From: Octopus vulgaris
Lineage: Eukaryota
Length of the DNA: 64,000 nucleotides
Direction: 5' to 3'
NCBI GenBank assembly: GCA_951406725.2
Contig: OX597817.1
Location: forward strand, 139,438,001-139,502,000
The position numbers were made by a program, and so were the translations under genes. Shown here one piece after another: positions 3,746 to 38,795 of the stretch (positions within the stretch are counted from its first letter, which is position 1; every line of letters begins with the position of its first letter). The notes below the pieces were generated by a model that searched no databases, was not told where the DNA came from, and was given only the letters and a program-made list of their open reading frames with translations.

Positions 3746-4050
3746 TTGCAGCGTAGAAGGTGTTTATAAGACATTTAAGAAACACACAAAAAACCGTTAG
3801 ATTCGCTTTAACATTTAAATTTCATTTGTCAAAATATTTTCGTCACTTTGAGATGCAGCATGAAGTTTTGTCACTGAACAGGTCGTGGTCTCAAAGCAAC
3901 GAAAATATTTTGACAAATTAAATTTAAATATTGATGTGAATCTAACGGTTTTTGTGTGTTTCTTAAATGGCTTATAAACACCTTCCATGCTGCAACTGTT
4001 TTCGTTCCAGCACACGATCTCAGATCAAGTCACTCACTATGCAAGTACAT
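3746..4050. repeat. Foldback element, about 105-bp inverted arms (3746-3855 / 3888-3995)
   Basis: gaaggtgtttataag..aagaaacacacaaaaaaccgttagattc mirrored by gaatctaacggtttttgtgtgtttctt..cttataaacaccttc. Confidence 0.85.
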
Positions 4051-4108
4051 TTCCATAATAAATAAATACCATTTTGCTAATTGTTGCTGTTTTCTGTTCC
4101 TTTTAAAG

Positions 4109-4209
4109 ATGATGAATTTGCTGGAGTTTTTGTCCATAGTCTTCCTGATCGCTGTTGGTCATCTGACAGTAAAAGAGTGCTCTTCAGTACAGTCTCTCGA
4201 TCTCATTTG
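4109..4209 (+). CDS. APEH: APEH exon
   Basis: ttaaag|DDEFAGVFVHSLPDRCWSSDSKRVLFSTVSRSHL|gtaaat; matches the APEH CWSADSQRV motif; phase 1 to 0. Confidence 0.92.
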
Positions 4210-4829
4210 GTAAATGTTCTGATTTTCTCTGCTATATTTTGAGAGAGAGGTGTGTGTGTTAGATACTTTTTTTTTTTTCAAATTTTGGCATTTAATTGAA
4301 ATCTTGGAGAAAGTAATGAGGCATTGAAATAATTCTAATTCTACCCAATAAATTTTGATACAATAATGGCACATATTTCTTTGCTAGTGATGCTAAAACA
4401 ATTTAATTCATGTATTTTGTTTAGTTGCAAATAAGATTCAAGAAAATAATCTTACATAAAAACCAAAATAATTACCTGTACATTTAAAATTGTATAAATT
4501 GAAATTGTAATTTACCTGAGAAATTGTGATTTACCTGAGAAATATTTCCTGAAAACTGATTTATATATCTCCACAATTTCTGTTGTGAAAAACAAGTCAT
4601 CCACTTTTCCATTTCATCTGTGATGTAGTGTATATATGATGCAGTGTGCATATGAAATAGTGTATACAGGATGTGAGTTATATATGATGTAGTACTGTAT
4701 ATACAATGTTGTAACAAAGTATGAAACACAAGATTTTTGTACATAATTTAATCCATTTCAACATTGGTCCAACCCATGCCAGCATGGAAAACGGACGTTA
4801 AATGGTGATGATTATTTCTTTTTTGCTAG

Positions 4830-4881
4830 GTTCCAGTCGTTGTTAATACAGAAACACAGAAAGTAACACGGATTAAATCGC
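4830..4881 (+). CDS. APEH: APEH exon
   Basis: tgctag|VPVVVNTETQKVTRIKS|gtaagt; phase 0 to 1. Confidence 0.88.
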
Positions 4882-5398
4882 GTAAGTGAATCTTGGCATG
4901 TTTTGTAATTTCCATCATCAGCAACTCATTAGATGCTGCTAAGTGATAGAACAGTATCATAGATGACGTTATTTTAAAATTCACTGATATTTTAATGGAA
5001 AAAACGTTTAAGAGCATTTGTTTCTCACAATGCATAATGACCAAGTCTCCAGTTGTATTTCACAAACATAATTGGGTTTCAAAACTTCTGCTCCCTCATC
5101 ATGTTTACATTTATCATTCCATTATGGCAGAATCTGCTGACTTCCTTAGAGGTCTACTGTTCTGTCATTTCATCACACTTTCAAATTATGAGAAATCCTT
5201 CTTTGAGAACCATCATGTCAGTACACTAATCAAATACTTCATCCTTCAAGCTGTAGAGTTGCTCCAGCTGGGTCGACCAAGTTTATTCAATAAAACAAAT
5301 TCCATGCCCAATTGGTTGCAGTGGTGATCATTGGAAGGACAGTTGTTTTTGCAGCTGGACTCTATCCCTAATGTTAACCATTCATCCATAAAGAGTTG

Positions 5399-5642
5399 CT
5401 GTGCTTTGGAGTAAAGATTGTTTGCCAAAATAACATGGCAGTCCTGGTTTAGGACGAATGTTGCTGTAATTTAGCCCCAAGAGACATCGTCTTCAGCTGG
5501 CTGTACGACACAATCTGTGTATCACAATTTCCGGGTTATTTCCCTAGAGACAATGTCTCCTGGGGCTAAATTACAGCAACATTTGTCCTAAACCAGGACT
5601 GCCATGTTATGTTGGCAAACACTCTTTACCCCCAAAGTACTG
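5399..5642. mobile_element. MITE-like element with about 85-bp TIRs; partial second copy at 28861-29051
   Basis: ctttggagtaaagattgtttgccaa..gtcctggtttaggac..aatttagcccca mirrored at 5545-5638. Confidence 0.8.
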
Positions 5643-6699: not shown

Positions 6700-7663
6700 A
6701 TATATAGAATATGAATTAGAGATAAAACCACTATTAGGCAACTCAAACAGTGATAGACATTAACCAATACATAAATAACAAATAATATAAATATAATTAA
6801 TATAATATATATATTTAAATTTTTAAATTAAAAAACTTTTTTTTTCTTTTCCAAAAAGTATAAAAAGAATGATAAATATAATATAATAAATAAAAACACT
6901 ATGTACGTTTCATGGCTATAATTAAATTCAAATTTCAATTAAGTTTAAATTCAATTGAAATAAATTCAAGCTGAAATTATAGTCAATCTTCAGTAAGTAA
7001 TAATGGACTAATTAATTTATTTATTTTTCATTATATGTCTATATATTTATTGATAGAGTAAATTTTAGATTTTAATTACTATATTTGTTAATTATAATTT
7101 AGTTATATTTTTAAATATTTTATAATTATTAGATGTGAACTTTAATCTAAAAATATGAATAGTGATTATTTTGTTAAATAATTTGGTAATTAAATATTGG
7201 ACTATAACTGAGTTAAGGATATTCGTGAGTTTATTATGTTTTTTTAAAGCCATATTATATCTTCATAGATAAATACATATTTCTATCTATTTTTTTTACC
7301 TTAAAAATAAATATTTAACATAATAAATGGGTTGTATGACATAATCCTAATGTTTTAAATTTCAAATTTAGATAATGGAGTTTTTATAAGAAAAATTATT
7401 TTATTTATTTCTTAAAACATATTGTTTAACTCTATTTGCTTATTTATTTAACTATTATCATTAACCTGAAGATTGACTATAATTTTAGTTTGAATTTATT
7501 TCAATTGAATTTAAACTTAATTGTAATTCGAATTTAATTATAGCCATGAAACGTACGTAGTGTTTTTACTTATTTTATATTTATCATTATTTTTATACTT
7601 TTTATAAAAAAAATTTTTTTAAATTTAAATATATATATATATTATATATTATATTAATTATAT
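6700..7663. repeat. Extremely AT-rich foldback element with about 200-bp inverted arms (6785-6993 / 7466-7663)
   Basis: acgtttcatggctataattaaattc...agtcaatcttcag mirrored by ctgaagattgact...gaatttaattatagccatgaaacgt. Confidence 0.85.
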
Positions 7664-9772
7664 TTGGACCAAATAACTGAGGTATTTCGGATTGCTAGAC
7701 AGTGTGTGAGAGAAAATAGTGATGTTACAGGAGAGAAATGTGTCCGCATGGATGATGGGGCACTTGCTTTTAATGATGGTGAAAAGAAAGAGGCTTGGAG
7801 AAGCCATTATGAAAGACTGCTGAATGTGGAGAATGAATGGGAGGAGGAGAGCCTGCCAAATGTTGACCCAGTAGAGGGACCAGCTATCCGAATAGATAGC
7901 TCCCTTGTAGTTAAGGCAATTAAGGGTATGAAACCAGGTAAAGCCCCCGGCCCATCAGGAATCACTGCTGAGATGCTTAAAACAGCTGGTTGTGTGGGCT
8001 ATGGCCTAGTCACCCGCAATGTAAACCAGGTATTTCATAATGGAGTCATACCCAATGACTGGCGTAGCAGCACCATAGTCACCTGCTACAAGGGTAAGGG
8101 TGATGCTCTAGATAGAAATAACTACAGGGGTATTAAGCTGTTGGATCAGGTGATGAAGGTCACTGAGAGGGTCATAACCCATCTTATTAGGGGGAGCATT
8201 TGCTTAGATGAGATGCAGTTCGGTTTTGTGCCGGGTAGAAGCACCACTGATGCTATATTCCTGGTCCAACAACTGCAGGAGAAGTACCTAGCTAAAGATA
8301 AACCCCTCTACATAACTTTTGTGGACTTGGAGAAAGCCTTTGACGGGGTCCCCTGATCCCTTATCTGGTGGTCGATGCGGAAACTGGAGATTGATGAATG
8401 GCTAATAAGGGCTGTACAGGCCCTATACAGAGAGGCTGTTAGCAAGGTTAGGTTTGGCAACGAATATAGTGAAGAATTCTGGGTAGAAGTAGGTGTACAC
8501 CAAGGTTCAGCCCTCAGCCCCCTTTTATTCATCATAGTCCTCCAGGCAATAACAGAGGAATTCAAAACAGGTTGCCCCTGGGAGCTCCACTATGATGACC
8601 TGGCTCTCATAACAGAATCACTACCGGAACTAGAAAAGAAATTTCAGGTGTGGAAGCAAGGGTTAGAATCAAAGGGCCTTAGAGTAAATGTAGCAAAGAC
8701 CAAAGTTATAGTAAGCAGAAAGGTGAACTCAGCACACACACCCTCGGGCAGGTGGCCCTGCTCGATCTGTAGGAAAGGTGTAGGTCGAAACTCCATAAGA
8801 TGTACCCAGTGTAAGCTATGGACGCATAAGAGGTGCAGCAACATCAAAGGGAAATTAACTGATAAGATAGCTTTCATGTGCGGCAGATGCACAGGGACAA
8901 TAGGCACCACAGATACTCAGAAAACAGATTCCATCACACTCCAGGGGGAGAAACTAGAAGTAGCTGATAGTTTTTGTTACCTGGGTGACCAAGTTAGTAG
9001 TGGAGGTGGATGCTCAGAGAGTGTCACCACTAAAATACGAATAGCCTGGGCAAAGTTTAGAAAGCTCCTACTCCCACTGGCGACAAAGGGTCTCTTGCTC
9101 AGAGTGAAAGGTGGATTGTATGATCCATGTGTGCGAACTGCCATGCTTCACGGTAGTGAAACATGGGCTGTGACTGCAGAGGACATGCGTAGACTTGAAA
9201 GAAATGAAGCTAGCATGATCCGCTGGATGTGTAATGTCAGTGTACGCGCACGACAAAGGGTAAGCACTCTGAGAGAAATGCTGGACATAAGAAGCATCAG
9301 ATGTGGTGGGCAAGAGCGTCGCTTGCGATGGTATGGTCATGTACTGCAGATGGATGAGGAGAGATGTGTGAAGAAGTGCCGCTCCCAAACAGTTGAAGGT
9401 ATCAGGGGGAGAGGTAGACCCAGGAAGACATGGGATGAGGTAGTCAAGCATGACCTCAGAGCGTTGGGCCTCACAGAGGCAATGACGAAGGACCAAGATC
9501 TCTGGAGATATGCTGTGACTGCAAAGACCCGGGCTGCTTCCTGCACCAGTTCCGCATAGCCCCTGCCCATTCAAAGTACCTTGGATTTCAGAACATCCCG
9601 CTGTGCTTGAGAAGACCTATTGAGTCAAGTACATGAGTATCGAAATAAATATCAATGGAAATAGTAGTTGTGACACCTGTGCCGGTGGCACGTAAAAAGC
9701 ACCCACTACACTCGTGGAGTGGTTGGCGTTAGGAAGGGCGTCCAGCTGTAGAAACACTGCCAGATCAGACTG
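7664..9772 (+). mobile_element. 5'-truncated RTE-clade LINE (RT + PHD-like finger), inactivated
   Basis: ORFs 7664-8356 and 8375-9559 are in the same frame, split by one TGA; RT motifs KAPGPSG, NYRGIKLL, QFGF, DLEKAFD, GVHQGSALSPLLF; YADD reduced to YDD; RTE C-terminus RLRWYGHV..RGRGRPRKTW; 3' UTR shared with short copies. Confidence 0.95.
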
Positions 9773-10773: not shown

Positions 10774-10860
10774 GTAAGATGGTTTTGTTTTGTTTTCTAA
10801 ACCAGGATCTTTTCCTTAATTTAACTTCTTATTACTCATCTTGATTCATTTGTTAATGTA

Positions 10861-13616: not shown

Positions 13617-13752
13617 ATTATTTACATTTGATGGATGTTTGTCCTCGTCATGTTTGTTGTTAACACAACGTTTCGGCTGATGTACTCACCAGCCAAAACA
13701 TTGTGTTAACAACAAACAAGATGAGGGCAAATATCCGTCAAATGTAAATAAT
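13617..13752. repeat. Near-perfect 63-bp-arm hairpin
   Basis: attatttacatttga..ttgttgttaacacaacgtttcggctg / cagccaaaacattgtgttaacaacaa..tcaaatgtaaataat. Confidence 0.85.
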
Positions 13753-16589: not shown

Positions 16590-17968
16590 TATTCAAATAT
16601 AAATTATATATTTTTAAAATATTATAATGTAATTCTTCTGACTGTTAATCTCAGAAAATATCTCTTAATATTTATGTGTACACTGTTTCTGTTGGTTTAA
16701 TTATTGATCATCATCAGGAATGTTATTTCTGGATGTGTAGGCAACTGGTTGGATTTGAACTCATGATATATATTTCTCATTTAACAGCAACAGTACTCAT
16801 AGCCACTTGGTCTCGGTTGCTTTATGTTATCTTCAACCGAAATATTTTGCTTCATTAAAAACACATCACAGCTCACAAGAATTATTATTTTTTTTGTATT
16901 TTGTTATTTTTGACTTAATGTTTGTTATTTTGCTTCAAGACATAATTTTAGGGATTTGAAGTTCCTCTTGGACTTTTGATGAACAAATATCATGGAACAA
17001 CTCCTTAGTTTGATTCCAGAGACCAATGGAAAGTTTACAGCAATTCCATTATTAATGGCACAAGAAGCAACTTAAGTAACAACAAGGCCTAACTGCCAGC
17101 TCCTCCTCCTCCTCCATGATGCCCCAGGGAACTGAGCCCTACCCCACTACATTCCATTAGCATTCAATTTCATGTTGTGTGTCTCTACTAATTACACCAG
17201 TCTAGCTGAGTGGTCTTTATTCGGTGGGCGGGGATGTCTCCAAAATGTAATATCCAGTATGGCCTGTTGGTCAAAACAACAGCAGTGACAGAGAATGCCT
17301 ACATTGTGTTGAGCAGTAATAGTAGGTATGAGCAGAATGTGACCTTGTGCTCTTACTATGAGATCTTTTGAGCCCTCATCAGAAGCCTGGTGAGTGAACC
17401 ATCAAAGTAACCTTGAAGCTCCATCTTCATAGTTCAGGTTTCAACTCCATGGAAAGCACTAATCTCTACAGATGCCCTGACAACTGTTTTTGGTCTTGAC
17501 GCCAATATTGCACTTCTAAAACAAGTACCACACCATTTGCTTTTTAATTAAAAAAAACAATCTCTATTTCACCAATAGTCCCCCCCACCACCATTCCATG
17601 CAGCCAAAGCTGGGACATTGTTGTTTATTTTGGAAGCACCACACTACATGTTAAGTTCCTGTTAATCTAGTCCAGCACCATCACCAAGTTGTTTTCCTTC
17701 CTTTCTTGTTCTGCTGGCTGGTAACCAGGACGGAGTAGGTTTTGAGTGTTCACCCAAGATCACACTACACCTGAACTCCACCCCCTTAAGTGTTGCAAAT
17801 ATTTAACCTAGACATGCTTCAGATCCTCTTTAAACCCTCTTGGGAAAATGTAGATTATTATAAAATGTTAACCACCAAATGGTAGCCAATATTTAGATGG
17901 TCATTAATATTTAGATAGTCACCAACTATATACATATAAAACTAAATACCTTCAATCTTTTATTTCAG

Positions 17969-18057
17969 TAAATTATCGTGGCTCCATTGGATGTGGTCAG
18001 AACTCTATTAAATCTCTTTTGGGTAAAATTGGCCATCAGGATGTACAAGATGTACAA
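17969..18057 (+). CDS. APEH: APEH exon
   Basis: tttcag|VNYRGSIGCGQNSIKSLLGKIGHQDVQDVQ|gtaagt; NYRGS motif of S9 peptidases. Confidence 0.95.
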
Positions 18058-19561
18058 GTAAGTCATTACAAAGAACCTCATGATTGAAGACAGATTTAGC
18101 AAAGTTGTTAAGTTTTTTTCTTTCTTTCTTCCCCAATATAAATATCTTCAAAATGTTGAGCCTGTCCAGTCAAAAAAAAAATACCAAGGTTTTTGATTAT
18201 AGAATAAATTCTATGTTTAATGATTTTGTTAATCAAAGATCTCGATTAAAGAGTTGTTTAATCATATCATGTTATTTGAAAGTAACAATTTTAGTTTATT
18301 TTCAGTGTATCAGATTTTAGATTATATATTTTTAAACATCTTATGATATAAATGAAACCTCCCCAATGCTAAATAGGAAATATACATATTAGATACCATA
18401 CCTCCATACCCACAGTTTGCACAGGTAGAGTAGAATAGTTAGAGGACTGTTAGGTAGATAAATGTATGTATGTGTGTGTGTGTGTATGCACCTTTTTTTT
18501 TTGTATAAGCATATAGATAATATAGATATGAAAATAAACAGATCAACATACAGATGGATAGGTACATAGGTTACAAGAACAGACACATGGAGACACGGAT
18601 CCACACATATAAAGATGCTCATCCATACATACAAATATGGTACATAGTTGCATAACACACACACACACACACACACAAGGAGACAGAGGTGCATACATAT
18701 ACAAACACATGCTCACACACACATACATAGAAAATACACAAACACGGACATGCAAGCACATAAATATGCAGGTTACGTACATACAGATGCACACACATAT
18801 ATACATATGCATACACACACACATATACATACACACACACACATACATACATACGTACATGCATGCGTGTATAGGCACACACTAACCCACACACATGTGC
18901 ACAAACAAACAAAAGGGAATGCAGTGTAAATAACGGACAGAGTCAAGACTATTGTAAAGGTTGCAAGACGCAACGAAAATTTTAGGAAAATAAGAAATAA
19001 GTGGAAATTTTACCGGTGTGTGTGTGTTACTTTATAAGGCACAAAAAGAAAATTACTCTCCCCAGACACAACAGAATTTTATGAGACCTGTATTAATTGC
19101 TACAAAATATACAATTGGCTACTGTCATACCATTCAGTCCACACACCGTTCACTAAAATTACTCAGTAACAACACATTTATGGTACTGGCACTTCTATGT
19201 AGACTACCAAACCTTATTAAATGGAATTACCATTTCTACCTCATCTTTGATTTGTTGGTAATAACTCCAACAGTGCTTAGAGTTATGTAACTTTAAACAG
19301 CATTTTACTATTTTAAATTTTGTTTTTTAAATGTTAATAATTTTTTTATGAATGTAAACAAGATTTCTTATATACATGAAATATGAGGCATTTTTCAAGG
19401 GGTGGGGTTCACTACCATTTATTTGATTCCTACACAAAATTATTGTCCCTCACATCTGTGTTCATTTCCTTAAATCAGTGTTCACTATGTCCCTTATATC
19501 ATTATCCAATATGCCTCATCATTGCATAATATTGTCACTTATATCATTGTTCAATTTTTTC

Positions 19562-23285: not shown

Positions 23286-23574
23286 CAGTGGAACTTCAGT
23301 TTACAAATTTAATTCATTCTTGAAGACCGTTTTTCACCCAAAATGTTTGTAAACTGAAACTATTTTTCCCATAGGAACTTAAAGAGAAGGCACAGTGAAT
23401 TCAAGCACTGAGTGAAATTGGTGCTCTCCTACTTGGCGCCAACCATTGTTGTTGTTGTCTTGCATCTTTGTTACCGAAGACACCATTCATCACCCAAGAT
23501 GTTTTATGTCAGAAAAATTGTTCATAAACCAATTTGTTTGTGATGAGAAGCATTTGTAAAGCAAGATTCTGCTG
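23286..23574. mobile_element. Old Tigger/pogo-like MITE
   Basis: TA-cagtggaacttcagtttacaaat ... atttgtaaagcaagattctgctg-TA degenerate TIRs. Confidence 0.6.
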
Positions 23575-23760
23575 TATTTGCTGACCCAGACCATTCCACG
23601 CTTCCTTGATATTTACCATTTCACTATAACATGAGTGACTTGTTCCAATGGACAGTTTGGATATAGTAATTCCTACAGTTCATTGCCATATTCTTTACAT
23701 TTTAAAAATTATGAAAAACTGAAAAACTAAATTTTGAACATGGTTTTTATTTGTTTCCAG

Positions 23761-23809
23761 GATTTTTACAAAGCAGCGGTTTGCAGAAATCCAGTTACTA
23801 ATTTGCTAA
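23761..23809 (+). CDS. APEH: APEH exon
   Basis: ttccag|DFYKAAVCRNPVTNLL|gtaagt. Confidence 0.94.
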
Positions 23810-24161
23810 GTAAGTATTTTTGACTGTCCGAAATATGTCCTTACATTTCATTATTCCTGTTTTAATGTTAAACCCTTTAAATGGATACTGATGCAAAGTT
23901 GAACACTACAGAATAGTTAGCTAAATCAGTTTGTCTTAGTGTACACTTAACCATCAACACCTCAGTTCATGCTGTTGTTTATGATGGACTGATGTAGCTG
24001 TTTAGTGTTTTATGTGATGGTGGACTCACACAGCTAAGTACACAGCATCCCAAATGACTGTGCCACAGCAGACAACACTGTACAACAACACCTCAAGGGA
24101 ACTGCTGCAGTGCTGGCCAACCTGCTAAATGGGGTAACCAAATTTCCCTCACATATCATGA

Positions 24162-24572
24162 GGATCTTTTCGGTTTGACCAGTAGTTTTTTCTAGCGGTG
24201 TCATATGAAATTGTCACCCATAATTATGACCCTAGTAACGATCTATTGCATTTCAATCTGTTTTAGGGTTATGGGGTGGGTGAAGGGTATCTTTTTTTCT
24301 TCAGAAATGTAAATAAACCCAATCTGTTTCTTAAACGAGGGATATATTCATACGGCACAGAATGTTTTCACCTCATTAGACGTCATTGATTGGTTGAAAT
24401 TGCAGAAATTGAAGAAAAAAAACAACAAATATCTTACAAACTATAGAATTTTCTCAATAAAGCCAAGAGAAAAAGATGTTTTATAAACACATTCTACCAA
24501 TATATGAAGTTTAAAAGTGTTTAGTTACGTGGAAATTATTTTAAAAAACTGCCGATCAAACTGAAAAGATCC
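24162..24572. mobile_element. Non-autonomous DNA transposon with GG termini and an 8-bp TSD (Merlin- or hAT-like)
   Basis: TIRs ggatcttttcggtttga / tcaaactgaaaagatcc; perfect TSD TATCATGA at 24154-24161 and 24573-24580. Confidence 0.85.
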
Positions 24573-25265
24573 TATCATGACAACATCACTAGGGCCAATG
24601 ACATAACAAAAAGCACCCAGTACACACTGTAAAGTGGTTGGCATCAAGGAGGACATGCAGCTGTAAAAATCATTCCAAAGCAGACATTGGAGCTTGATGC
24701 AGTTCTTGGGCCCATTGGATCCTTGTCGAACTGTCTAACCTCTTCTAGCTTGGAACAGGGATATTAAATAATGATGATGATATGCATCTTGGAAAGGAAA
24801 GGACACATTGCATAATGTGGTCCTACATACTTTGTAAAGCTTGGGCAGTCATAGCTGGAGTAGGATGACTAAGTCAGGTCTGGCCTGTGGTTAAACAGTA
24901 ACAACAGCAACAACCCTCTGCATCAAAACATTGCAAATGACATTTCTTTTATTGTTATCCTGGATGCCAGTTGTCAAATTACCAAAGGAGGCATACAAAT
25001 ATATTATTTAGAACTTTGGTTGGCTTTTGAAAATATATTTAACAACAGTAACTCTTACTGGCACCAAACAATGAACAATTTGCAGTATACCAAAATCTCT
25101 AATTACTCATATTTAACAGCAGAAACTTTTACTGGCACCAAACAGGAGACATTTTAGACTATCCTAAAATCTATCCCCACCCATTAAATTGGTTCTCCTT
25201 AAGATCATCCTGATAATTTTAAATGTAAACACAATTCTTAATTAATCCTTTTCTTTGGGTTACAG

Positions 25266-25296
25266 CCATATTTGGATCCTCTGACATTCCAGATTG
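25266..25296 (+). CDS. APEH: APEH 31-nt exon
   Basis: ttacag|TIFGSSDIPDW|gtaagt; matches APEH GSTDIPDW; phase 1 to 2. Confidence 0.94.
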
Positions 25297-25472
25297 GTAA
25301 GTATCAAACTAATCCACCCAATCTTCGTACTTCATTAATTATTATAATTATTATATTCCCTCATATTATCATATATATATATATATATAATTTAATGTTA
25401 AATAGGTATTGTTACCATTAATGATAATGATAATAATAAAGTGGTTCATTCGAAGTGTAGAGTTTATACACA

Positions 25473-25691
25473 ATGTAAGATTCCAATACCTTATGAGTAA
25501 GATCCAACAGTATTTAAAATTGGTCGTTCCAAGAACAAAATTTATACAGTGTTGTAGAGTCAAAGGTTTTTATTTAAAGGCACTTTAAATAAAAGCTTTT
25601 GACTCTACAACACTGTATACAAATTCTGTTCTTGGAACGATCAATTTTAAATACTGTTGGATCTTACTCATAAAGTATTGGAATCTTACAT
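25473..25691. repeat. Foldback with about 105-bp arms next to the hammerhead motif
   Basis: atgtaagattccaatac..agtgttgtagagtcaaag mirrored by ttttgactctacaacactg..gtattggaatcttacat. Confidence 0.88.
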
Positions 25692-25826
25692 ATATACCAT
25701 TCTGCCTAAAAAATGGACTACATATTCAATATCCCTACATATCTCACATCTATTTTCTTTCCTCCAACTCATTCTCTATTTTGTATCCTATCTAAATTAA
25801 TTATTACTTAACCATCCTCTCACACC

Positions 25827-25878
25827 GTCTCCGATGAAGGGATATAATTAATAAATATTCTGGAAACAGCTGTAAGAC
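25827..25878 (+). ncRNA. Minimal type-I hammerhead ribozyme motif (U4C core variant)
   Basis: gtct-CCGATGA-agggatat..atattctg-GAAAC-agct-GTA-agac: 4-bp stem I, stem II, palindromic stem III, GUA triplet. Confidence 0.65.
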
Positions 25879-26059
25879 CTATCTATAAATGTTCTAATAT
25901 CTACACAGCCTTGGTTTTTAATCTCATTACGCAAAAAATCTGATTCATGACATCTCCTGCTTTTGTCTCTTTCTCTCTGTTTCGCCAGACACTCAACTCT
26001 CCAAGTGTTCAATTCCTGATCTCTCTTGCTTCTGCCTCTTTCCTTCTTGCATGCATTTC

Positions 26060-26500
26060 TGTTAATACCACACACATTCCAGTTAGTCCTACAGCCATCC
26101 TCATAATTCCATGCCCACCCCTGTTAATCCCTCCCCCTTTCCTATTAATCCTACACCCACCCCTGTTAATCCTACACCCACTCTTGTTGATCCTTTGAAG
26201 ATATCTGTTAATCCCAATCCCATTTCTATTAACCCCTGACCCGTCCCTGTTAATCACTCACCCACTCTTGTTGATCCTTGGACATCTCTGTTCATTCCAC
26301 ATTCAAGCCTGTTAATCTCCACACCCATTCCTGTTAATCCCAAACATATCCCTCTTAATCCCACACCCACCCATCCCTGTTAATTTCACTCCCACCCCTG
26401 TTAACCCCATACCCAGCTGTGTTAATCCCCACACTCTTTCTTGTTAATCCTCCACCCTTCCTTGTTAATCTCCATGCTCATCCCTGTTAATCCTCCACAA
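26060..26500. repeat. Degenerate minisatellite, unit about 22 bp (cctgttaatccYacacccac)
   Basis: About 20 imperfect units with a ctgttaatcc core. Confidence 0.85.
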
Positions 26501-28225: not shown

Positions 28226-29417
28226 GTTGGTTATTAGGATTCATTTCCTCATCCTGTACGAAATTTGATACAAGTTAAATTATAATTGCTGTATGTCTGC
28301 CATATTTTCTGATATTATCTGTGGTGGCAAAAGTATTTCTCGCAAAAGTTACCAGGGTCATGAGACAGTGCTCTTGTGTATATTATAGTAAGCCTCGTGC
28401 TCAACCCTGATGGTGCAGATCTATAATTAAAGACATCCCAGCCATGATCATCCTGTCTTTTATTCAAACATAAGTCTATCTAGAAATACATTTTTCAATG
28501 TGTTCTTCTTTTTCTAAGATGTTAAGGTATATATTTCTTTACTACCCACAAGGGGCTAAACATAGAGGGGACAAACAAGGACAGACAAACGGATTAAGTC
28601 GATTACATCGACCCCAGTATGTAACTGGTGCTTAATTTATCGACCCCGAAAGGATGAAAGGCAAAGTCGACCTCGGCTGAATTTGAACTCAGAACGTAAC
28701 AGCAGACGAAATATGGCTACACATTTCGCCCAGCGTTCTAATCTTTCTGCCAGCTCACCGCAGATGTTAAGGTATAGTTTAAGGGAAGTGTATCTACTAT
28801 ATTTAACAACCATGAAGAGGAAAATTACTATTTTTAAATCCCACACGAGATATTCAGCAACAGTACTTTGGAGTAAAGATTGTTTGCCAACATAGCATAG
28901 CAGTCCTGGTTTAGGACGAATGTTGCTTTAATTTAGCCCCAGGAGACATCGTCTCCAGCTGGCTATACGATCTGTGTTCTTATATTTTCGAACAAGGGAA
29001 TCTAGCACCCCCACCCAGCTCAAAACAATATCTGTGTATGTTGGCAAACAACCATGAAGAGGATCCCAAATTAATTGGTGTTTGTGTGTGTCACTCATGA
29101 AATATTGCCTTCCACAATAGCAACATTAACAGTTGATATATTATTATAAGAATAGTGGAATGGTAAAATGCTTTGGGTGGTAGGCAAAGTGCTTTTCAAT
29201 ATTTAGCTCAAATATCTCTGTTCCAAGTTCAAATTTTGCCAGGGTGAATTTTACCTCCCATTTTACTGGGGTCTTTACCATTCACTTTACCCTGCCCCCA
29301 AATATGTAGCTTTGTAACTATGCTAGAAATCAGTATTTCTGAGGTATTTTAATTAATTCACTCGTCATTCAATATTTCTGTTTAATTGATATTTCAATAT
29401 TTCCATCTTTACATCAG

Positions 29418-29520
29418 GTTTATGTCTTATACGGAAAATAGTCACCCACTGAACAAAGTCGACGCAGAAGCTGATGCCTTTGTCAACATTGTTTCCTGGT
29501 TTTGGTATTATATCTGTTGA
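29418..29520 (+). CDS. APEH: APEH terminal coding exon with the catalytic His and stop codon
   Basis: catcag|FMSYTENSHPLNKVDAEADAFVNIVSWFWYYIC*; TGA ends at 29520. Confidence 0.95.
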
Positions 29521-29643
29521 CCTATGAAACATTTTTTAAATTCCTGCTAATTCCTCTAGCAGCTTTATTGGTTTGCCAATTTCTTCCCTGCCCTACCTTT
29601 ACCCCCCTCCCTACTGAATCCTGCACCACCACCACCACTTCTC

Positions 29644-29664
29644 ATTAAACAAAAATGAAATAAA
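29644..29664 (+). terminator. Candidate APEH polyadenylation signals (ATTAAA, AATAAA)
   Basis: First hexamers after the stop codon, followed by T-rich tracts; usage unverified. Confidence 0.35.
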
Positions 29665-31319
29665 CTTGAGAAAATCTGTTTTATTCTTTACAAATAGTCC
29701 AAGTTGTTTATAACTGCTTAAAAGAGTTTTTTTTTTTTTTTTTGCAGTTTGATTTCAATTTTCCATTTGTTACAACCAGTAGTATATATATATGTATATA
29801 TATATATATATATTCTAATAATTGGTATGAAAGACTGTGTACTGTAAGCTTATTAAATGTATATATATATACACACACTCACACGTGTGTGTGTTTAAAG
29901 AGATATATACTCTCCTTTTCTACAGACACACACACTTGTCAATTATGGGTTTGTCACTTTCTTCATAGTGTTTCAAGAGAACAAGTTCTCAGAAAGAAAA
30001 AGCAAATGAAAAATGTTCAGTTGTCTTCTTCAAAGCAAGAATGTTATCTTTTTTCATCTCTTTTTGGTTTTTAATTTTTTTTTTTTAAACATTCATTTTC
30101 CATGTCAGCATGGATTAGATGGTTCTGAAATCTTGGATAATTCAATGAAATGTTGAAGTATTTTGACCGTTGAATGCCCCCCACCTCACTCATCTTGAAA
30201 TGAGAAAGTGTATTTTTCAACTAGGTTGACAAAGGTAATCTAGGTTGTATTCCTTGATTTGTGGCACAACACAAGACTGCTGAAAATAAATGTTTAAAAA
30301 AAAAAGAGAAAAATCCACATAAAATTTATTGAAATTTGTCACTAAATGGAATAATTTCTTGATGTTTTTTAAACAGTCTCTACTAATAATGGGTCCATTA
30401 TTCAAACTTTATCTTCTGCTGAATATTTCATAGGAATTCTGTTTTAAAATTAAGATACATTAAAAAACTTAATTTTCATTTACCTTTAATTCATGAGAAA
30501 AATATAACAAAAATTTAAATATTAATGTGTTTTTTAAAAGAAATTTATGTAAAAATCTTTTTGTTTGTGTGTGTATGTTCTTGTTTCCAACTGTTATAAA
30601 CTAGATTTTACTCAAAGGTATGATTAAAATATTTTTAAAGAGTAACTAAACTGTGTACATCTCAGAAATTCCTAATTAGTATATTGTTGTTATTAACTTT
30701 AGCTTTTAATAATCATAATTATAGTCTTTTTATTAAATGATATTTTCTGATACCATGTTTTATATGTTACAATTAAAGACTTTTAAAAGAAACCCTGTTG
30801 TGAGAGCTAACTAACAATGGTCGTTAAAATTCTAATATGTTTAATATTTGTGAGAAACTAATATTAATTGTGATCCTAATGTAATATAAATTTTGATAAA
30901 ATTCTTTTAGAAGTAGAAAACTGTATTTAATTATGAGATTTAATTATAGTTATCTCTTTAGTTTTATGACCAAATTTTACTGGTCTCAATGTTCTTTTCT
31001 TGTTTCACAACATCTCTTCATTAACATATTCAAAATATTTTTTATAATTTTTCCCAATCCTTTTCCCCATTTTCTGATCCATTTGTTGTGTTTAACCATT
31101 TCTTGCATTTGGTGACCTCTCTTCTGTATTGGCTTAGTTTTATCATGCTTGTCTTTAAAATCCCCCAACATTTTTTTTTTATAAGTGTTCATTTTATAAA
31201 ACCTACAAAATCAAAGTCATTATCTTAAAGATATTTGTAGTTTTTAAAGATGCTCCATATTTTAGTACAATACCACATGACTGGAAGAATTTCTATATAT
31301 ATATATAAATTCTTGTATG

Positions 31320-31350
<31 letters not shown>

Positions 31351-32743
31351 AGGCTCATTATTTTACTTATTCCTCTCCTCCTTACCCAGCCCAACACCCA
31401 GATACATTGAAGCACTTCAGTGTCATCAATTCAATTTTTCAGTGACTAATGCAGCCATGCAAATGGAAAATTATTGCCTAATTATAAGAAATTGTTAAAT
31501 ATTGATCTCTTGCATTGGCACAATCTCTACACTAAATACTAAGAACTGTGTTATATTCATTATATTGTTTTATGGGCAATTGATAGGGATTACACCTCAG
31601 GGCACAATGTTTTTTTTTACTAGGAATCTAGGGATAAGACCACGGGGTACCATATACAATTTTTATGGACAAGCTGTAGATATAAGAAATATACCTCAGG
31701 GTACATTTTGACAGACAATGGTAGTGATAAGAATTATACCTCAGGGAATCTACAAACTCAATGTTTACAAGTTTTACAAAGGAAGTATCTCAGTAAATTT
31801 CTATCAATTAATTATGTCTTTTTAATTACACTTACATATCGTTAAAATGGATCAATTCTATAAACTCAGAACAGTATTTTATAAAGTTCAGTATTTGTAC
31901 ATTGTACTGGTGGCACACCAAAATAATAATAATTATTATTATTAGAAGATAAATTAACAATCTTTTATTTAATAGCAATAAATATATATTTTTGCATATA
32001 TTTATTAAAAAAAAAAACCAAAGAGATTTTTTTTCAGAATGATTATTTTATCAGTTTAAAATTATTGGTTGTTAATTAATTGTTGCTGTTATATTAATTG
32101 AACAGATATCCCTCCCCACTCCTATCCCCATACTACAATAATGTCGTAATAGGAGAAATAGTTCAAATGACTTCAAAAGAATTTCAGGTTCATAAAACAC
32201 AAGACAAAAAAATTAATTAATTAATTAATTAAAAAAAGGAAACATTAATTTATTGATGGTACAAGCTGTTTTTAGATATTGCAAAAATATCCAAGATGGT
32301 CCAGAATTGTTGTAAAAACTATTGATTTTTGTTTTCTATTTACTCTCTAAAATTGAAAAATTAATACAATTTTATATATTGATATATTTTCAATGTTATT
32401 TTTATCTCAATAATATTCATTTGACTTCGATTGGTGATGTGACAGATATTTATTTGTATTACAAACTTGGGAAGTAAGAAGTAAGAAAAATCCTCAATGT
32501 TTATAATGAAATATCTCTAAGCAAACCAGAACAAGAAATCCTTTCTTAAAATTTAAGGGTCTTTAGGTAGAACCTATTATGGTAACATTACTCTCTGCTT
32601 CTCCATTAACAACAACAGAACCTTTCTGTATTTTATACAGAAATTGTTGCCATTCACTTGACAGAAGTAAATTTCTTGGCAACATTTTAAAAATATTTAT
32701 GGAACTGGTGGTTTTAGGGTTGAACTTAAGTCAGTGATTTTAA

Positions 32744-32971
32744 CCCTTTCATCACCATATTTATTTTGAGATGCTCTGTGTTTCTTTCAATTATTTTAAA
32801 TATAACAAAGAGTTTAGTAAAATAACTTAGTTATCATTAGGCTAGTGTTAGGAACATAAATTGTGACTAAGGTTTGGTGGAAGATTTTAATTCAAAACTT
32901 ATGAAAACACGATATTTCTCCTACAGAGCCAGAGCCAGAGCCAGTTTCAGCTGGGTTGGTAACGAAAAGGA
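32744..32971. mobile_element. piggyBac-like MITE
   Basis: TTAA-ccctttc ... gaaaagga-TTAA. Confidence 0.6.
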
Positions 32972-33181
32972 TTAAGCAAAAATTTTGTTGACAAATATAA
33001 TTACTCAGAAAACCTTGTGTTGAATGTGTTGGAAGTCTTAAACATTGGTTTATGAAGGACTGAGAGACATGTAAAAATAAATGCAACGAAATATGTACAC
33101 TAGATATAAGCACAAAATGCATGAATTGAGAGTTCAATATCTTATCTAGCCATTGGACCTCAAACTGTTTCTACTGTTTAA

Positions 33182-33401
33182 CCCTTTAGTGTTTAAACCG
33201 GCCACATCTGGCCCAAATATTCTACATGTTTTATATTTGAACTAGCCATATCTAGCCTCTCACACTTAACCTACATTGACATTCTAAAAATAAATATTCA
33301 CATCATTGAGATTTCAAAGCTATGAGATAATGTATGATTAATTCAAAACAATTTGAGTGAAAAAGCATTACATTTAACTGAATAATCTGAACACCAAAGG
33401 G
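33182..33401. mobile_element. piggyBac-like MITE (second family)
   Basis: TTAA-ccctttagtgtt ... aacaccaaaggg-TTAA. Confidence 0.7.
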
Positions 33402-34150
33402 TTAAATGAGGATAAATCTAATTAAGTAAGTAAGTTTGCAAATGATTTTAAAAGTGTTTTTAATCCTTGCATTCCCCAATTATGGGTCACTAGTTTAATA
33501 AAAAGAGCTGGACCTATCTGACCAAATTTATTCCTTCATACTGTCTCTTATATATATTTTACCCATTTGATTCTGGCCATTTTTTTTTTTATTATTTTAC
33601 TTCTTTTGATGATGATCTAAGGGGGCTTCAAGCAGTAATTCAACAAATATTTACTTTCTGTAAGCCCAACTGTTTGGATAACATCATAGTTATATTATAT
33701 TAAATGATCCCTTTTTTTTATTTATTTACAAAGGGAATTTGGTATTTTAACTAGAAATCTTCTGATCAATAGCCAACGAATACTACCATGTATATATTCC
33801 AAATGTTATATATATATATATATATAACATTTATACGCATGTGTGTGTGTGTATGTATACATATATATATAAAACATATACGTGTATGTCTGTGTATAAG
33901 TATATATATATATATATATACGCACACACACTCATAAAGTGATTAACTTCATCTTTAAGTCCCACCTCTTCTATCAGATTCTAACCTCAACTCTTTCTCA
34001 CATTTTCTAGAAATTTCTTGTTTCCTCCTCTCCACAACACCCAAGGCCTTTTACTTGCCAGATTTGTTGCCAAAAATAAAAGAATCCATAAAGTTTTAGA
34101 AATGAATCTTTTATTTTCAATATGTTAACTGCTTTTTATATATGTATTAC

Positions 34151-34229
34151 CAAATAATGACAATTCCTCCTTCCAAACTCCTGAACTGGCAAAAGGTGGC
34201 TACGAAAATCGAATTTTTGTTGGCTTCCC
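34151..34229 (-). CDS. Possible distal CDKL exon (tentative)
   Basis: ctgcag|GSQQKFDFRSHLLPVQEFGRRNCHYL|gtaata; phase-compatible with a 30-nt candidate exon at 34337-34366. Confidence 0.28.
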
Positions 34230-34773
34230 CTGCAGTTATTCTTTGTAAAATATAAGATTAATTGGTTCCAAAATGGCTATTTTTTTTCAACATTTTTTTT
34301 TTTTTTGTCTTTTGGTATTAACAATTCATAAATTACCTTGGTTCTTCCTGAATTACATTTTCAATGCTATACTTTATATCTTTATATAGTTTGTGATTCT
34401 ATATGCAGAGACGTGGAAGTGCTGAACACTTGTTTGTGAAATGAGTAGAGTCTGTTATATGTAAATTTCATTTATTTATGTGTCCAGCCCATGCCTTCAT
34501 GGAAAACAGACATTAAACAAGGATATATTTGTGTGTGTGTGTAATATATTCAAACATTGACTTTTGTTGAATGAATGAAGAGAGAACTCAATACATGTTG
34601 AAGAGTATGTTATTGATTTAAACTGAATTTTTTTTTCATGACTTGGGTTTCACACTACTGCAACTGTTGATCATACTTGCATGGTGATTGTAAACTTGTG
34701 TTTCAAGGAAGGAATTCACTTTAAATATACCATATATATGTATGCATGCATATATATATTTATGTATGCATGC

Positions 34774-34811
<38 letters not shown>

Positions 34812-35257
34812 CTTGTCCGTTAAATCTACACCTGGTTCATAAATATTAATTCCCAGATGGCATGAAATAATGTAAGTTGCAGTCTGATAAACATGGATTT
34901 AAGTGACTGTAATACATATGCATACATAACATGAACATACATATACACATACGTCTTAACATATGAACATTCTCATCGTTCTTGTTCATCCATCATTTTT
35001 GAAATTGACCAAAATTCTACATCTTAGGTACCACTGCATTAAAGAGCTTCAGAAACAGCGCATAGCTACATGAATAACTGGAGAGTCGACTAATCTCACC
35101 TCTATTACCCCCTCCATGTTTCATCATGAACTACAAAACTACTGAACTGCAATATTACATAATATATTGACTGCTGCAACAAAATGTTTGCCGTTTATTT
35201 GTGATTCCAAGAAGTCAGTCTGGACTTGGATTAGGAATGACTGCACCAGATAACTGG

Positions 35258-35301
<44 letters not shown>

Positions 35302-37479
35302 GACCTATGAGAAGCCGGGCCAGTATGAGTGGAGATATACTGGATATGCATCAGTATGTGCCAACCATGTTCTGAGGTACATGTGCTGCTGTGATGTGGT
35401 GATAGAAATTCAGTCTTCATATACAGAGAGAGAACTCCTTAAAGAATTTCACTGCCCACACTATTTGCTCCGGAGGTAGTACACTGTGACATAGAGACAG
35501 TTTGTGGAGCAAAAGGTGGAAGGTATGTACACAATGCTGAGAACTAGTGGCATATGAGCTGTCCTGTAAAGGAATTGGTACATCCCTTACCAAGGGTACT
35601 CTTCTTCCTCCCACACATCCACACCACATACATACACACTCACATATTCCAACTGGTTTGACAGTATTAGGCAGGCATTGGTGTCTACAGTTTCACACAC
35701 ATGGAATTGGGATATATTTCCTTTAAACACTTTTATCCTAAGAAATATAAAACAATCTTTGTATTGTACACTCATATGTTTAACATAATTGCTACTAAAT
35801 CTCTCTCTTTCTCTACCCCCCCCCCCTACAAAATAATCCACTCTGGACTTAAAGTTTGTTTGTACTAAAAGAAAGAAAATGACCATTGTTGCGGATTATA
35901 ACATTATTATTATTATATGAACTTTCATAAGGCAGCAATTTAGAGGAATCATTTGAGCATTGGACATAATGCACAGCAGCAACCAGTTACAGCTATTTGC
36001 ATACTGAGTTCAAATCCCACCAATGTCAACTTTGCCGTTCATTCCTCTGGGATTTGAACTCAGAAGAACCAATAAGTATTTTTCTGACACTAATGATTCT
36101 GCCATCTTGCTACCCTATTAATGGTTGTAAGACTTTCTAATTTTGGTACAAGGCCAGCAATTTTGAGGCAAGTGGCTAAGTCCCATTGCACAACTGGTAC
36201 TGATTTTATTAACCTCAAAAGGCTGAAACACTAAGTCAACCTCGACAGAATTTGAACTCAGACCATAAAGCACTTCAATCAGTGTGCTAATTGTTCTGCC
36301 TTCATCAACAATAATAATAATAATGTTTGTATGAAACCGTTGACTAAAACCAGACCTAAACATGACTTTCTTCGTGTGTGTGTGTGTTCAACAATGATAT
36401 TGACTAAAGTTTTCAGCAATTTCTAAAGTCTGCATTTTTGTTTCAATTCTCAGTTGGAAATGTTTCACTTCATAAATTATTCTGAGAAAGAGACACTCAT
36501 TTCAACTGCTCACTTTCTTTTGTCTGCTACTAAGGTTTTTATGCCTATGCAAGTAATAGGAAAACTTAATCCTTTGTTGTTGTTCTTGGAGTTCTTACTA
36601 ACCCCACCAGTCTTCTAATTTCTCTCCTTTCCCCCTAAATTTCCTAATGCCTTAAATAATAAATTGTTATTTAATCACGCCTTGTCTTTGACTTCTTTCT
36701 TTTGCTTGTGGTCTTTTTTTCTTTCTTAATGTTTTGTTTAATTAATAGGGCACCAGTTTGTGGTAAGTTGCATGAATTTTAGAATTGAGAGAATCACCCT
36801 GTTTCCATTTCATTATCTTCATTTTACAGTCTATTTGCCAAGTTGATATCAGCCAAATTGGTCACCTTAATCTGAGACAGTTTTAATTTGGAGTTCTTTC
36901 CCTCTTGAGTGAGACAAAGGTCCACATTCCACTTAAATGTTGACCTGGTTCCCATAGCTGGCTGCCCTTCCTATCACCAACCACATTAGCTTGTGTAATG
37001 GGTTCATTCTCTCATAGTGCCAGTACTGGAGAGGTTGTTATCTTTTTGGAAAGACTAAAATAGCTTCTACCCCTAGAATCATTTGCCTACCTCTCCACAG
37101 AATGTACTAGGTTCATTTTATCATGGCACCAGCATCAAAGAGCTTGGCTTGATCTGAAGAAAGGTAAAATGAGGAATGATATTGGTTGAAAATGTTGGCA
37201 CAAGGTCAGCAATTTCTGGGACGGAGTGTCAATTCCATCAATCCTTGTACACAGCTGCTTATTTTATCAACCAAAACAATGAAAGGTAAAGACAACTTTG
37301 GTTGAATTTCAACTCAGAACATTAAGATAGACGAAACATCACTAAACATTTTGACCACTCTGCCAATGATTCTGTCAGCTCATTGCCTTGGAATGAGGAA
37401 TGGTATTATTTGGTAAAACTACTATGAGTTTTTCTTTTTAAGCTACTACATGTTCAAATGGTGAGGCTGGTTAAAACTG

Positions 37480-38445
37480 AAAAGTGCAGAAAAAGCTTGC
37501 TGCTGCTCACGCCTGCATTTGTGTCAATGTATAAATGAAGGGGTTGTAAATGCAGCCAACAGAAGGGAAATAGAATGAAGATACTTGTAGGAAGGTAGAC
37601 TGGGGAAATGTATGTTAATGGGTGGTAGACAAGAAAATACATCTTGCTGGTGGGAGATGAAGAAAACAGATTCTTCTAGGTAGAGAACTAGGAAAACAGG
37701 GATTCTGATCAGGTTGACTATCATCATCGTTTAACATCCGTTTTCCACGTTAGCATGGGTTGGGCGGTTCGACCAGGGTCTGGAAGCCATGGAGGCTGCA
37801 ACAGGCTCCAGTCTGATTTGGCATTGTTTCTACAGCTGGATGCCCTTCCTAACACCAACCACTCCGTGAGTGTAGTGGATGTTTTTTACGGGCCACAGGA
37901 GACTGGCAAACGGCCACGATCGATTGGTGCTTTTACGTGTCACCGACACAGATGCCAGTCAGGTGGCGCTGGCATCTGCCATGTTCGGACGGTGCTTGCC
38001 TTTTACTGTGTCACCAGCACAGGTGTCTTAACTACTATGAAAATAAATATTACCAAGTGGTAGATTAAGAAAAATACATGTTAATAAAGTACAAAGTCTG
38101 TTGAGGGGCAAATGCTGGGCAGGGGACTGGAAAAATATTTGTCTCTGGGAGGTAGAAAATAGAAAAAATTTTGCCAGATGGTAGACTAGGAAAATAAATA
38201 TTACTAGCTAATAAGACTAGTGAAAGATGCGTTAATGTGTGGTTGAGTAGGAAAATACAATACAGTGCTAGACTAGGAAAATTCCTGTCTACTGCATGGT
38301 AGACATGCGTAATACATGTTACTAGTGTGTTTTCCTGTAAAATATATACCACTACATGGTAGACTTGGAAAATATGTGTTGCTGTATGAGAGACTGGAAA
38401 TACATTTTTGTATAGCTGAGAAGGAAAATACATGTTACTGGATAA
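37480..38445. repeat. Degenerate minisatellite, unit about 30-33 bp (ggaaaatacatgttact..ggtagact), split by an RTE short copy
   Basis: Recurring gtagactaggaaaata motif on both sides of the 37720-38035 insertion. Confidence 0.7.
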
Positions 38446-38573
38446 CGGAATTATATGTTTAAAAGAGTTTAAAATGTTGAAATGATAAATTTTGACTGAA
38501 AAGAAATTGTAAACTATTTCGCTTTGGGATTTGGTTTGCAAGATTCTTTATATGAGTTCGTGTGTTGAAGCAT

Positions 38574-38795
38574 ATTCTATTGTGTCTGGGGAGAGTCATT
38601 TTCTTTTTGTGCCTTATTGTATAACACACTCACCGGTAAAATTTCCACTTTTTTCTTATTTTATTTTCTTCAAGACGCAATGAAAATTTTAGGAAAATAA
38701 AAATAAGAAAAAAGTGGAAATTTTACCGGTGAGTGGTGAGTGTGTTACACAATAAGGCACAAAAAGAAAATGACTCTCCCTAGACACAATAAAAT
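38574..38795. repeat. Foldback with about 95-bp arms; single-arm copy at 18962-19076
   Basis: attgtgtctggggagagtcattttctttttgtgccttatt..accggtaaaatttccactt mirrored downstream. Confidence 0.88.

Follow-up and report, generated by a model that had tools for sequence, protein, structure and literature searches.

Several short inverted repeats in the introns of an octopus gene carry motifs that look like self-cleaving RNA, which raises the question of whether these motifs are hammerhead ribozymes, from which elements they derive and whether they would cut the host transcript. We examined a 64,000-nt stretch of Octopus vulgaris DNA (the window), in which the gene for acylamino-acid-releasing enzyme (APEH) extends over 1128–29517 on the plus strand (15 matched exon pieces, residues 300–738 of P0001). 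In our judgement the motifs are probably (about 0.8) part of short fragments of several unrelated intronic repeats, likely the 3'-end (pseudo-LTR) stubs of Penelope-like elements (PLEs), each family with its own minimal hammerhead. The source elements would cut as dimers or with protein help, and the copies in the window are predicted to be dead.

Hammerhead-like motifs in APEH introns

The initial annotation had placed four motifs at 3867, 7466, 18949 and 25827. These positions were confirmed: 3867, 18949 and 25827 are the starts of stem I, and 7466 is the start of a core. The cores begin at 3874 (site C), 7466 (site B), 18952 (site D) and 25831 (site A). All four motifs are on the APEH sense strand and, together with foldback E described below, inside APEH introns; GAAA, the palindromic 15.1–16.1 segment and UH are present at all four plus-strand sites and in foldback E. 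A compact descriptor (at most one core mismatch, stem I of at least 3 bp, compact stem II, GAAA, palindrome, UH), modelled on the published consensus and written after the sites were known, matched the whole window at exactly 3874, 18952 and 25831. Block-wise dinucleotide shuffles yielded a mean of 0.26 compact matches versus the three real ones, and three were reached in 2 of 500 shuffles. With a looser descriptor, nine matches were obtained in the window versus 2.5±1.6 in 40 shuffles (maximum 6), so that about five loose matches are of chance grade. Site 7466 was caught by the loose descriptor and failed the compact one; a stricter descriptor missed B, C and D owing to its stem and palindrome limits. 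An Rfam scan of the window (E≤1) gave no hammerhead; its 78 matches were largely noise from microsatellites and miRNA-type hairpins. We conclude that the four motifs are real and exceed chance expectation. Judged by sequence, they appear to match the published minimal hammerhead of PLEs.

Stem I comprises 7 bp in C, 2 bp in B, 3 bp in D and 4 bp in A (published alignment: 2–5 bp). Stem II, which in minimal PLE hammerheads measures about 4–8 bp and is closed by G10.1–C11.1, has five of five pairs in D and four of five in C, both with G10.1–C11.1, and seven pairs in A, with G-U first. A, C and D have an extra unpaired base after A9, which the published consensus gives as H; C and the majority of family D have G at this place. 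In the window, A, C and D each have a core that is one base off CUGANGA or off its U3–A8 variant. The elements are mutually unrelated, as had been proposed, their best pairwise matches being AT-rich words of 9–26 nt. The earlier description of variant core positions 3 and 8 applies to two of the four sites (3874 and 18952) and not to 25831 (U4C) or 7466 (canonical). Likewise, the view that foldbacks contain or abut the motifs needs qualification, as the 18949 copy is itself no foldback and the 25827 motif lies 136 nt past the foldback to which it may be linked.

Foldback C (3746–3995) has inverted arms that are 82% alike, the left arm ending inside the hammerhead stem II loop, and folds as a single hairpin (−137 kcal/mol, z −23). 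Its decayed minimal hammerhead (3867–3917, plus strand) has the core CUGAACA (3874–3880), the palindrome AAUAUU and H17=U. The core change is an uncompensated G8C, which alone abolishes cleavage of a tested PLE hammerhead (PMC11167929). Where stem II differs between the arms, the positions are, on our reading, of the CpG type. The isolated fold was no better than shuffles (z −0.1), and the best fold shifts stem II to another register.

At site A (25827–25878, plus strand) the core is CCGAUGA, with C3–G8 intact and U4C, a change that lowers hammerhead activity (PMC3088659). Two of its stem II pairs are G-U, the palindrome is ACAGCUGU and H17 is A; the isolated fold was again no better than shuffles (z +0.9). 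The foldback upstream of it (25473–25691; arms 92% alike, 4-nt loop) contains no hammerhead part. A metagenome scan for the site A-type pattern returned 19 loci, none with the family A fold, and 12 of the 19 share one 35-nt match that by eye is like bacterial coding sequence. An endonuclease C-terminus suspected by eye in the right arm of this foldback was unsupported by HMM and frameshift-tolerant scoring, a weak test with a narrow profile.

Element B consists of a minus-strand left arm (6789–6993), an inverted copy that starts exactly at C3 and has an imperfect palindrome but no stem I, and a plus-strand right arm (7464–7665) with the hammerhead-like motif at 7464–7561 (core CUGAAGA, palindrome ACGUACGU, H17=A). 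The core is canonical in both arms. Element B is atypical in its 2-bp stem I, its stem II region of 74 nt (a U-U mismatch first, then 10 of 11 pairs) and its lack of G10.1–C11.1. In genomic context, the predicted pairing probability of the C, A and B hammerhead helices was close to 0 (for B, stem I only, in the right register).

Foldback E (13617–13752), absent from the initial annotation, is a palindrome with a G-C-closed hairpin of 5 bp at its centre; GAAA-CG-U-U comes next, so that the 3' half of a minimal hammerhead is present and the 5' core is missing. A further foldback at 5401–5640 was rejected as a hammerhead, having no GAAA-palindrome half and a sister copy without the core word.

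Core variant and spread of family D

Site D belongs to a highly repeated stub (18905–19080, plus strand) with a sharp 3' end near 19077–19080 and a CA-rich microsatellite just before it. Its minimal hammerhead (18949–18985) has U3 and A8 in the core (18952–18958), a perfect stem II, GAAA, the palindrome AAUU and H17=U. The minimum-energy fold is the hammerhead fold (z −1.7), with the stem I pairing probability falling to 0.08 in genomic context. The window copy has U at position 18955 (core position 6), whereas the family has A in 99.0, 98.7, 99.1 and 99.3% of the depth (runs X1, X4, X7 and X8, respectively). At 18952 (U3) and 18957 (A8), no variant reached 10% in family D contigs. These data show that U3–A8 is the family norm and that the U at position 6 is private to the window copy; the majority core is UUGAAAA. 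The window copy differs from the majority at only four listed positions in ~175 nt, so that a chance repair of exactly 18955 has an estimated probability below ~1%. The idea of a compensated 3–8 variant that a CUGANGA search would miss holds for the U3–A8 family at 18949, the only true variant among the four sites; the other non-canonical cores, those of A (U4C) and C (uncompensated G8C, decayed stem II), are no compensated 3–8 pairs.

The majority base at 18955 had been set beforehand as a test, and the outcome was as predicted.

In X1, depth was 1.85 million at the family D core versus 63 on unique flank, and the core/flank ratios in three runs were ~29,000–39,000, which is a depth ratio and no copy number. 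Judged by this ratio, the family has roughly tens of thousands of copies. Most contigs were 90–99% like the window copy, and we regard the family as very abundant and fairly young. Depth declines toward the 5' side and drops at the 3' end from ~2 million to 190 across 19075–19085 (X1). At 19077 there were 102–195 loose contig ends per run, whose first letters (~9–10 of them matchable) are those of the extension on one side of foldback D2. D2 (38574–38795), a family D member past the last APEH coding exon, has no 5' core; its right arm runs from the stem II loop on, and the tail is on the left arm only. At least six opposite-strand joints were found in the family, at differing places (among 15 joints listed of 30, most joints being supported by one contig each), and back-jumps in some contigs would be consistent with partial tandem duplication. 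Family D thus bears the marks of PLE insertion, namely 5' truncation, inverted or partial-tandem copies at variable points, a defined 3' end and a one-sided tail. Family D contigs held no compensatory stem change at ≥10% that would point to stem covariation, and non-CpG variants within the motif (~0 versus 1.5 expected) were not significantly depleted. A metagenome scan with the family D word returned 0 loci, and no RNA record was listed for 17500–26500.

Probable Penelope-like origin and competing explanations

A PLE endonuclease relic had been reported at 52.3–53.4 kb, and it proved real. The broken linker and GIY-YIG endonuclease lie at 52435–53397 on the plus strand, in three frames and with a repeat insertion at ~52790–53185; HMM pieces 2–25, 30–76 and 87–140 of 145 matched with E values of 4e-5, 1e-8 and 1e-3. 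With its cysteine linker the relic is of the Neptune/Nematis type. An exhaustive protein search with the relic found four relatives, two of them GIY-YIG, and the relatives carry Pfam GIY-YIG and RVT_1; a direct Pfam scan of the four relic pieces gave 0 families and a direct word-index protein search no relatives. More than 26 kb separate the relic from site A. We found no hammerhead behind the relic, and none of the four motifs had a linked reverse transcriptase or endonuclease. A frameshift-tolerant search for an endonuclease tail upstream of A, B and D, which had low power, gave background scores (A ranked 280 of 510). Kinship of the region upstream of A with the 3' region of the relic was rejected (best DNA similarity E 0.23).

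The initial annotation had taken the elements for non-autonomous PLE-derived or retrozyme-like families. A PLE origin is well supported. Since no motif lies in a tandem array, 'retrozyme-like' is unsupported, and 'non-autonomous' is not established, as coding PLEs would leave identical-looking 5'-truncated stubs. We propose that the hammerhead of the source element, acting as a dimer or aided by protein, would cleave tandem transcripts, and that target-primed reverse transcription would insert copies strongly truncated at their 5' ends. The foldbacks would then result from the addition of an inverted, truncated copy on the 5' side of such an insertion. Some inversions, most clearly that of E but also those of C and D2, may have arisen as snap-backs in the stem II hairpin or close to it. 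Published mutants together with the folding results lead us to infer that the window copies would leave the host pre-mRNA uncut: the core is altered by G8C in C, which is also trapped in a hairpin, by A6U in D and by U4C in A; B combines a stem I of 2 bp with an antisense arm, and the 5' core is missing from D2 and E.

It seems unlikely that octopus PLE families with uncompensated cores throughout the family (C3·C8 in C, C4 in A) exist as non-cleaving protein-binding folds whose stem II hairpin primes snap-backs, giving self-silencing intronic foldbacks beside a U3–A8 family of tens of thousands of copies. The simpler form of this idea, that the cores of C and A are family norms and a non-cleaving or slow fold was kept for protein binding, we likewise consider improbable. 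The window holds no second copy of the C or A core, insertion in vitro was independent of cleavage (PMC11167929) and U4C is tolerated in a viroid. However, the same question asked at site D revealed the odd base as private decay, and with C arms diverged by ~15% and a decayed stem II, one core change per copy is to be expected.

We give equally little credence to a reading in which the hammerhead-like words arose by chance in AT-rich DNA and the foldbacks represent MITE-type DNA transposons or mere inverted duplications. It has in its favour that MITE families exist in O. vulgaris, that a shuffled window contains 2.5 loose descriptor matches on average, that the tie to the motif is weak for B and for the foldback upstream of A, and that the CUGAAGA word in foldback 5401–5640 is lost in the sister copy at 28820–28970. 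Against this, compact matches numbered 3 versus 0.26, the core is repaired in the family D majority, and that family occurs with and without inversion, with varying inversion points and a one-sided tail. Moreover, the flanks of C, B, A, E and D2, compared crudely by eye, showed no matching duplication of ≥4 nt. Least probable of all are non-LTR retrozymes, non-coding tandem units copying through circular RNA: they have been proposed as non-autonomous PLE derivatives (bioRxiv 10.64898/2026.07.22.740005) and the family D back-jumps would fit them, but none of 28 tandem-array entries in 3000–40000 covers a motif, the motifs are of the minimal type tied to PLE ends (PMC4209133), and depth drops toward the 5' side as in truncated copies.

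Likeness to known elements

A U3–A8 core in Schistosoma PLEs, opposite-strand pairs of minimal hammerheads and a palindromic stem III were already described in 2014 (PMC4209133). Because the U3–A8 swap is published, the octopus is a new host of a known thing and not a new kind. Literature searches turned up no octopus PLE hammerheads, and the main text of a 2026 O. vulgaris repeat paper has neither 'hammerhead' nor 'ribozyme'; a 2017 paper on dimer-cleaving PLE hammerhead variants, or supplements, may list them. Cephalopods would join the hosts of PLE minimal hammerheads, and many short octopus foldbacks resembling MITEs may be PLE stubs. Family D would be a good test set for dimer cleavage by a U-A core and for selection on the motif.

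The closest counterpart of family D is found among the S. mansoni Cercyon PLEs (Cervera and de la Peña 2014, PMC4209133). The core of Schistosoma mansoni(4) in the supplement, UUGAAAA, is identical to the family D majority, and Cercyon hammerheads share the extra base before stem II, G10.1–C11.1, GAAA with a short palindrome, a 3-bp stem I and mostly single dispersed motifs. Family D differs in its octopus host, in G instead of H as the extra base and in having no ORF linked here; by depth ratio, it looks ~20-fold more abundant than the ~1,300 matches reported.

In architecture, sites A, B and C agree with the metazoan C3–G8 minimal hammerheads of PLEs (PMC4209133; Crassostrea, Lottia, Saccoglossus, Drosophila willistoni). 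The common features include AGCU and GUAC as palindromic loops, flanks rich in U on the 5' side and in AU on the 3' side, and motif pairs on opposite strands separated by a few hundred bases. Element B resembles the dual minimal hammerheads described on opposite strands 100–700 bp apart. A (U4C) and C (G8C) differ from this set, likely through decay, and B differs in its 74-nt stem II region, its 2-bp stem I and its U10.1–U11.1 mismatch, a known natural variant (PMC3088659).

A truncated copy in inverted orientation and a tail at one end are both marks of PLEs (PMC8557442). As in the inverted 5'-truncated insertions of Craig et al. 2021 (PMC8557442) and Frangieh et al. 2024 (PMC11167929), an inverted truncated copy lies here beside a forward copy, with a tail at one end and microsatellite or AT-rich surroundings. 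Unlike those insertions, the octopus stubs measure only 130–250 nt, and several inversion points are at or in the hammerhead. Non-LTR retrozymes (PMC7229834; bioRxiv 10.64898/2026.07.22.740005) also have a type I hammerhead in a non-coding repeat akin to PLEs; in contrast to them, this window is without tandem units each bearing a hammerhead. Site D shares its AAUU palindrome with H=U, and its stem I of 3 bp, with motifs in PMC4209133, for example a PLE-associated Crassostrea motif.

Four minimal hammerhead motifs in one host gene

The window holds a set of stubs carrying the minimal hammerhead, the small self-cutting-RNA motif known from Penelope-like elements (PLEs). Sequence inspection and a descriptor scan located all four motifs where the initial annotation had placed them, on the + strand. 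Site C (3867..3917, core at 3874) has a 7-bp stem I, the core CUGAACA, four of five pairs in stem II and the palindrome AAUAUU; site D (18949..18985, core at 18952) has a 3-bp stem I, UUGUAAA, a perfect 5-bp stem II and AAUU; and site A (25827..25878, core at 25831) has a 4-bp stem I, CCGAUGA, a 7-bp stem II and ACAGCUGU. Site B (core at 7466) combines a canonical CUGAAGA with a 2-bp stem I and the palindrome ACGUACGU. Its stem II region of 74 nt opens with a U-U and is then paired at 10 of 11 positions, and a second copy on the opposite strand begins exactly at C3. Variant core positions 3 and 8 had been claimed throughout, which holds for C and D only: A departs at position 4, and the core of B is canonical. 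The elements are unrelated, as proposed, sharing only short AT-rich words in pairwise comparison. Their supposed position within or beside foldbacks failed for the D copy, which is no foldback, and for A, where 136 nt separate the motif from the foldback. Just 3′ of site A is a degenerate 21-nt minisatellite of about 20 copies (26059-26493).

A compact descriptor matched exactly C, D and A in the window (shuffle mean 0.26; 2 of 500 shuffles reached three), a result that is supportive and not blind, the descriptor having been composed with the sites in view. A looser version, the only one that B passes, gave 9 matches vs 2.5±1.6 in shuffles. An Rfam scan of the window returned no hammerhead match. 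The segment 16815-16850 (+) carries a half motif, present as a single copy, in which a 5-bp stem closed by G-C is followed by GAAA, the palindrome AUAU and U; a 5′ core is not recognisable there, and the half motif is either a decayed copy or chance.

All four sites are intronic, on the sense strand, in the gene for acylamino-acid-releasing enzyme: 15 exon pieces of the Octopus bimaculoides protein (P0001) are spread along the + strand between 1128 and 29517, and the exon at 22031-22144 is identical to that protein. Foldback D2 (38574-38795), of the same family as site D, lies past the last coding exon. A protein kinase exon at 59807-60103 (-; Pfam Pkinase, E 4e-7) is presumably CDK-like.

The core of family D

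The site D copy departs from CUGANGA at U3, U6 and A8. We set in advance the expectation that, if it were a member of a U3-A8 family, that family would carry A at position 6 and retain both U3 and A8. Contigs from four sequencing runs, each with a different organism label, were aligned to 18905-19200 at 80% likeness (12,958, 11,349, 7,339 and 5,142 contigs per run). In each of the four runs, 98.7-99.3% of the depth at position 18955 was A, and 18952 and 18957 showed no variant reaching at least 10% of depth in these contigs, which makes UUGAAAA, with G next to it, the core of the family. This confirms the highly repeated element around site D (stub 18905..19080) as a very abundant U3-A8 family, and bears out the suggestion that some family has a non-canonical 3-8 pair. 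Listed variants inside the motif fell only at two CpG positions, 18969 and 18974, and the variable positions 18947 and 18986 border the 3-bp stem I on its outer side. The contigs of the four runs revealed no compensatory change within the family; a C3-G8 sister group might form less than 10% of depth or be too diverged to align at 80%.

Summed depth of the core relative to unique flank was about 29,000, 33,000 and 39,000 (runs X1, X4 and X7), ratios that are no copy number and were taken as an order of magnitude only. The 3′ junction of the insertion was bridged by a contig in these three runs and not in X8. Judged from the window copies, the simplest reading of sites A, B and C is that they are decayed or atypical.

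Known hammerheads and the state of the copies

The octopus members are new here; the minimal hammerhead kind itself is already known. Every element of the initial proposal is already present in Cervera and de la Pena 2014 (PMC4209133): the short stem I, the additional base that follows A9, a stem III that is palindromic, paired minimal hammerheads on opposite strands at spacings of 100-700 bp, and, with about 1,300 matches in S. mansoni, the U3-A8 core. Natural U3-A8 was first reported by Perreault 2011 (PMC3088659). PLEs have been annotated in O. vulgaris in a paper whose main text does not mention hammerheads (PMC13282606), and the literature searched contained no octopus PLE hammerhead.

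Within the source elements, one copy of the motif would pair with another by way of the palindrome, and cleavage would follow UH. In vitro, monomers are reported to be inactive and dimers weak (PMC4209133), and PLE hammerheads may require the element's protein; cleavage is dispensable for insertion (PMC11167929). The copies in the window are probably dead, by prediction. In the anole PLE hammerhead, the G8C change was by itself enough to abolish activity (PMC11167929), which bears on site C with its CUGAACA core; folding prediction gives the site C helices zero pairing probability inside a 250-nt hairpin, and the stem II differences between the arms would agree with a perfect 5-bp stem having decayed at CpG positions. 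The D copy lacks A6, and PMC3088659 associates changes at position 6 with low activity and U4C, as at site A, with lowered activity. Site B has almost no stem I, plus an antisense twin. Core changes occur in three of the four sense copies, about the level that decay over 11 core bases would yield, and thus do not point to selection exerted by the host gene.

Endonuclease relic and insertion anatomy

The PLE endonuclease relic claimed at 52.3-53.4 kb is real. Pieces of this broken GIY-YIG endonuclease (52435..53397) at 52561-52632, 52649-52789 and 53221-53397 match a profile built from 67 relatives (E 4e-5, 1e-8 and 1e-3); Pfam GIY-YIG and RVT_1 occur in relatives. Within the window no link to families A, B, C or D and no hammerhead 3′ of the relic were found, and the sequence upstream of A, B and D, searched for traces of an endonuclease, scored at background. 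The cysteine linker points to a putative Neptune or Nematis origin (PMC8557442). The relic is interrupted at about 52790-53185 by two tandem copies of an abundant short repeat, with a target-site duplication of approximately 15 nt as judged by eye.

Published marks of PLE insertions are truncated copies in inverted orientation and a tail that occurs on one end (PMC8557442; PMC11167929). Family D depth declines toward the 5′ side and, across 19075-19085, falls from about 2 million to 190 (X1). Loose ends at 19077 share first letters with the extension on the D2 left arm only, at low consensus agreement (0.45-0.48). Among 15 joints listed of 30, six change strand, all at different places and each resting on one contig per run; at several of the remaining joints the letters duplicate element sequence from further upstream, which would fit partial tandems. 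A crude flank check showed no fixed ends with target-site duplications.

Foldback E (13617-13752), from a local foldback scan and absent from the initial list, is a palindrome with a 5-bp hairpin, closed by G-C, at its centre and GAAA-CG-U-U next to it, i.e. the 3′ half of the commonest published minimal hammerhead motif without its 5′ core. Such 3′ halves number three in the window vs 0.16 in shuffles (0 of 500 reached three). The inversion centre in E is stem II itself, one arm of C and of D2 terminates inside the stem II loop, and both arms of element B begin at C3. These inversion points suggest that some insertions may have snapped back at the hairpin, a lead only, since the family D joints are spread out.

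A further foldback family (5401-5640 and 28820-28970), which has a non-inverted sister copy and lacks any hammerhead half, might represent either a MITE or a PLE stub. Inverted arms of 73 nt, 86% alike and about 240 nt apart, occur at 42759-43145. Right at the outer end of the element B right arm begins a nearly intact LINE reverse transcriptase region (7658-9559, +), which we take to be RTE-type. It matches Pfam RVT_1, contains an internal PHD-like finger and has a single in-frame stop, at about 8354. Two related LINE 3′-end fragments, 58729-59568 (-; no Pfam match) and 44739-45173 (-), are presumably CR1/L2-like.
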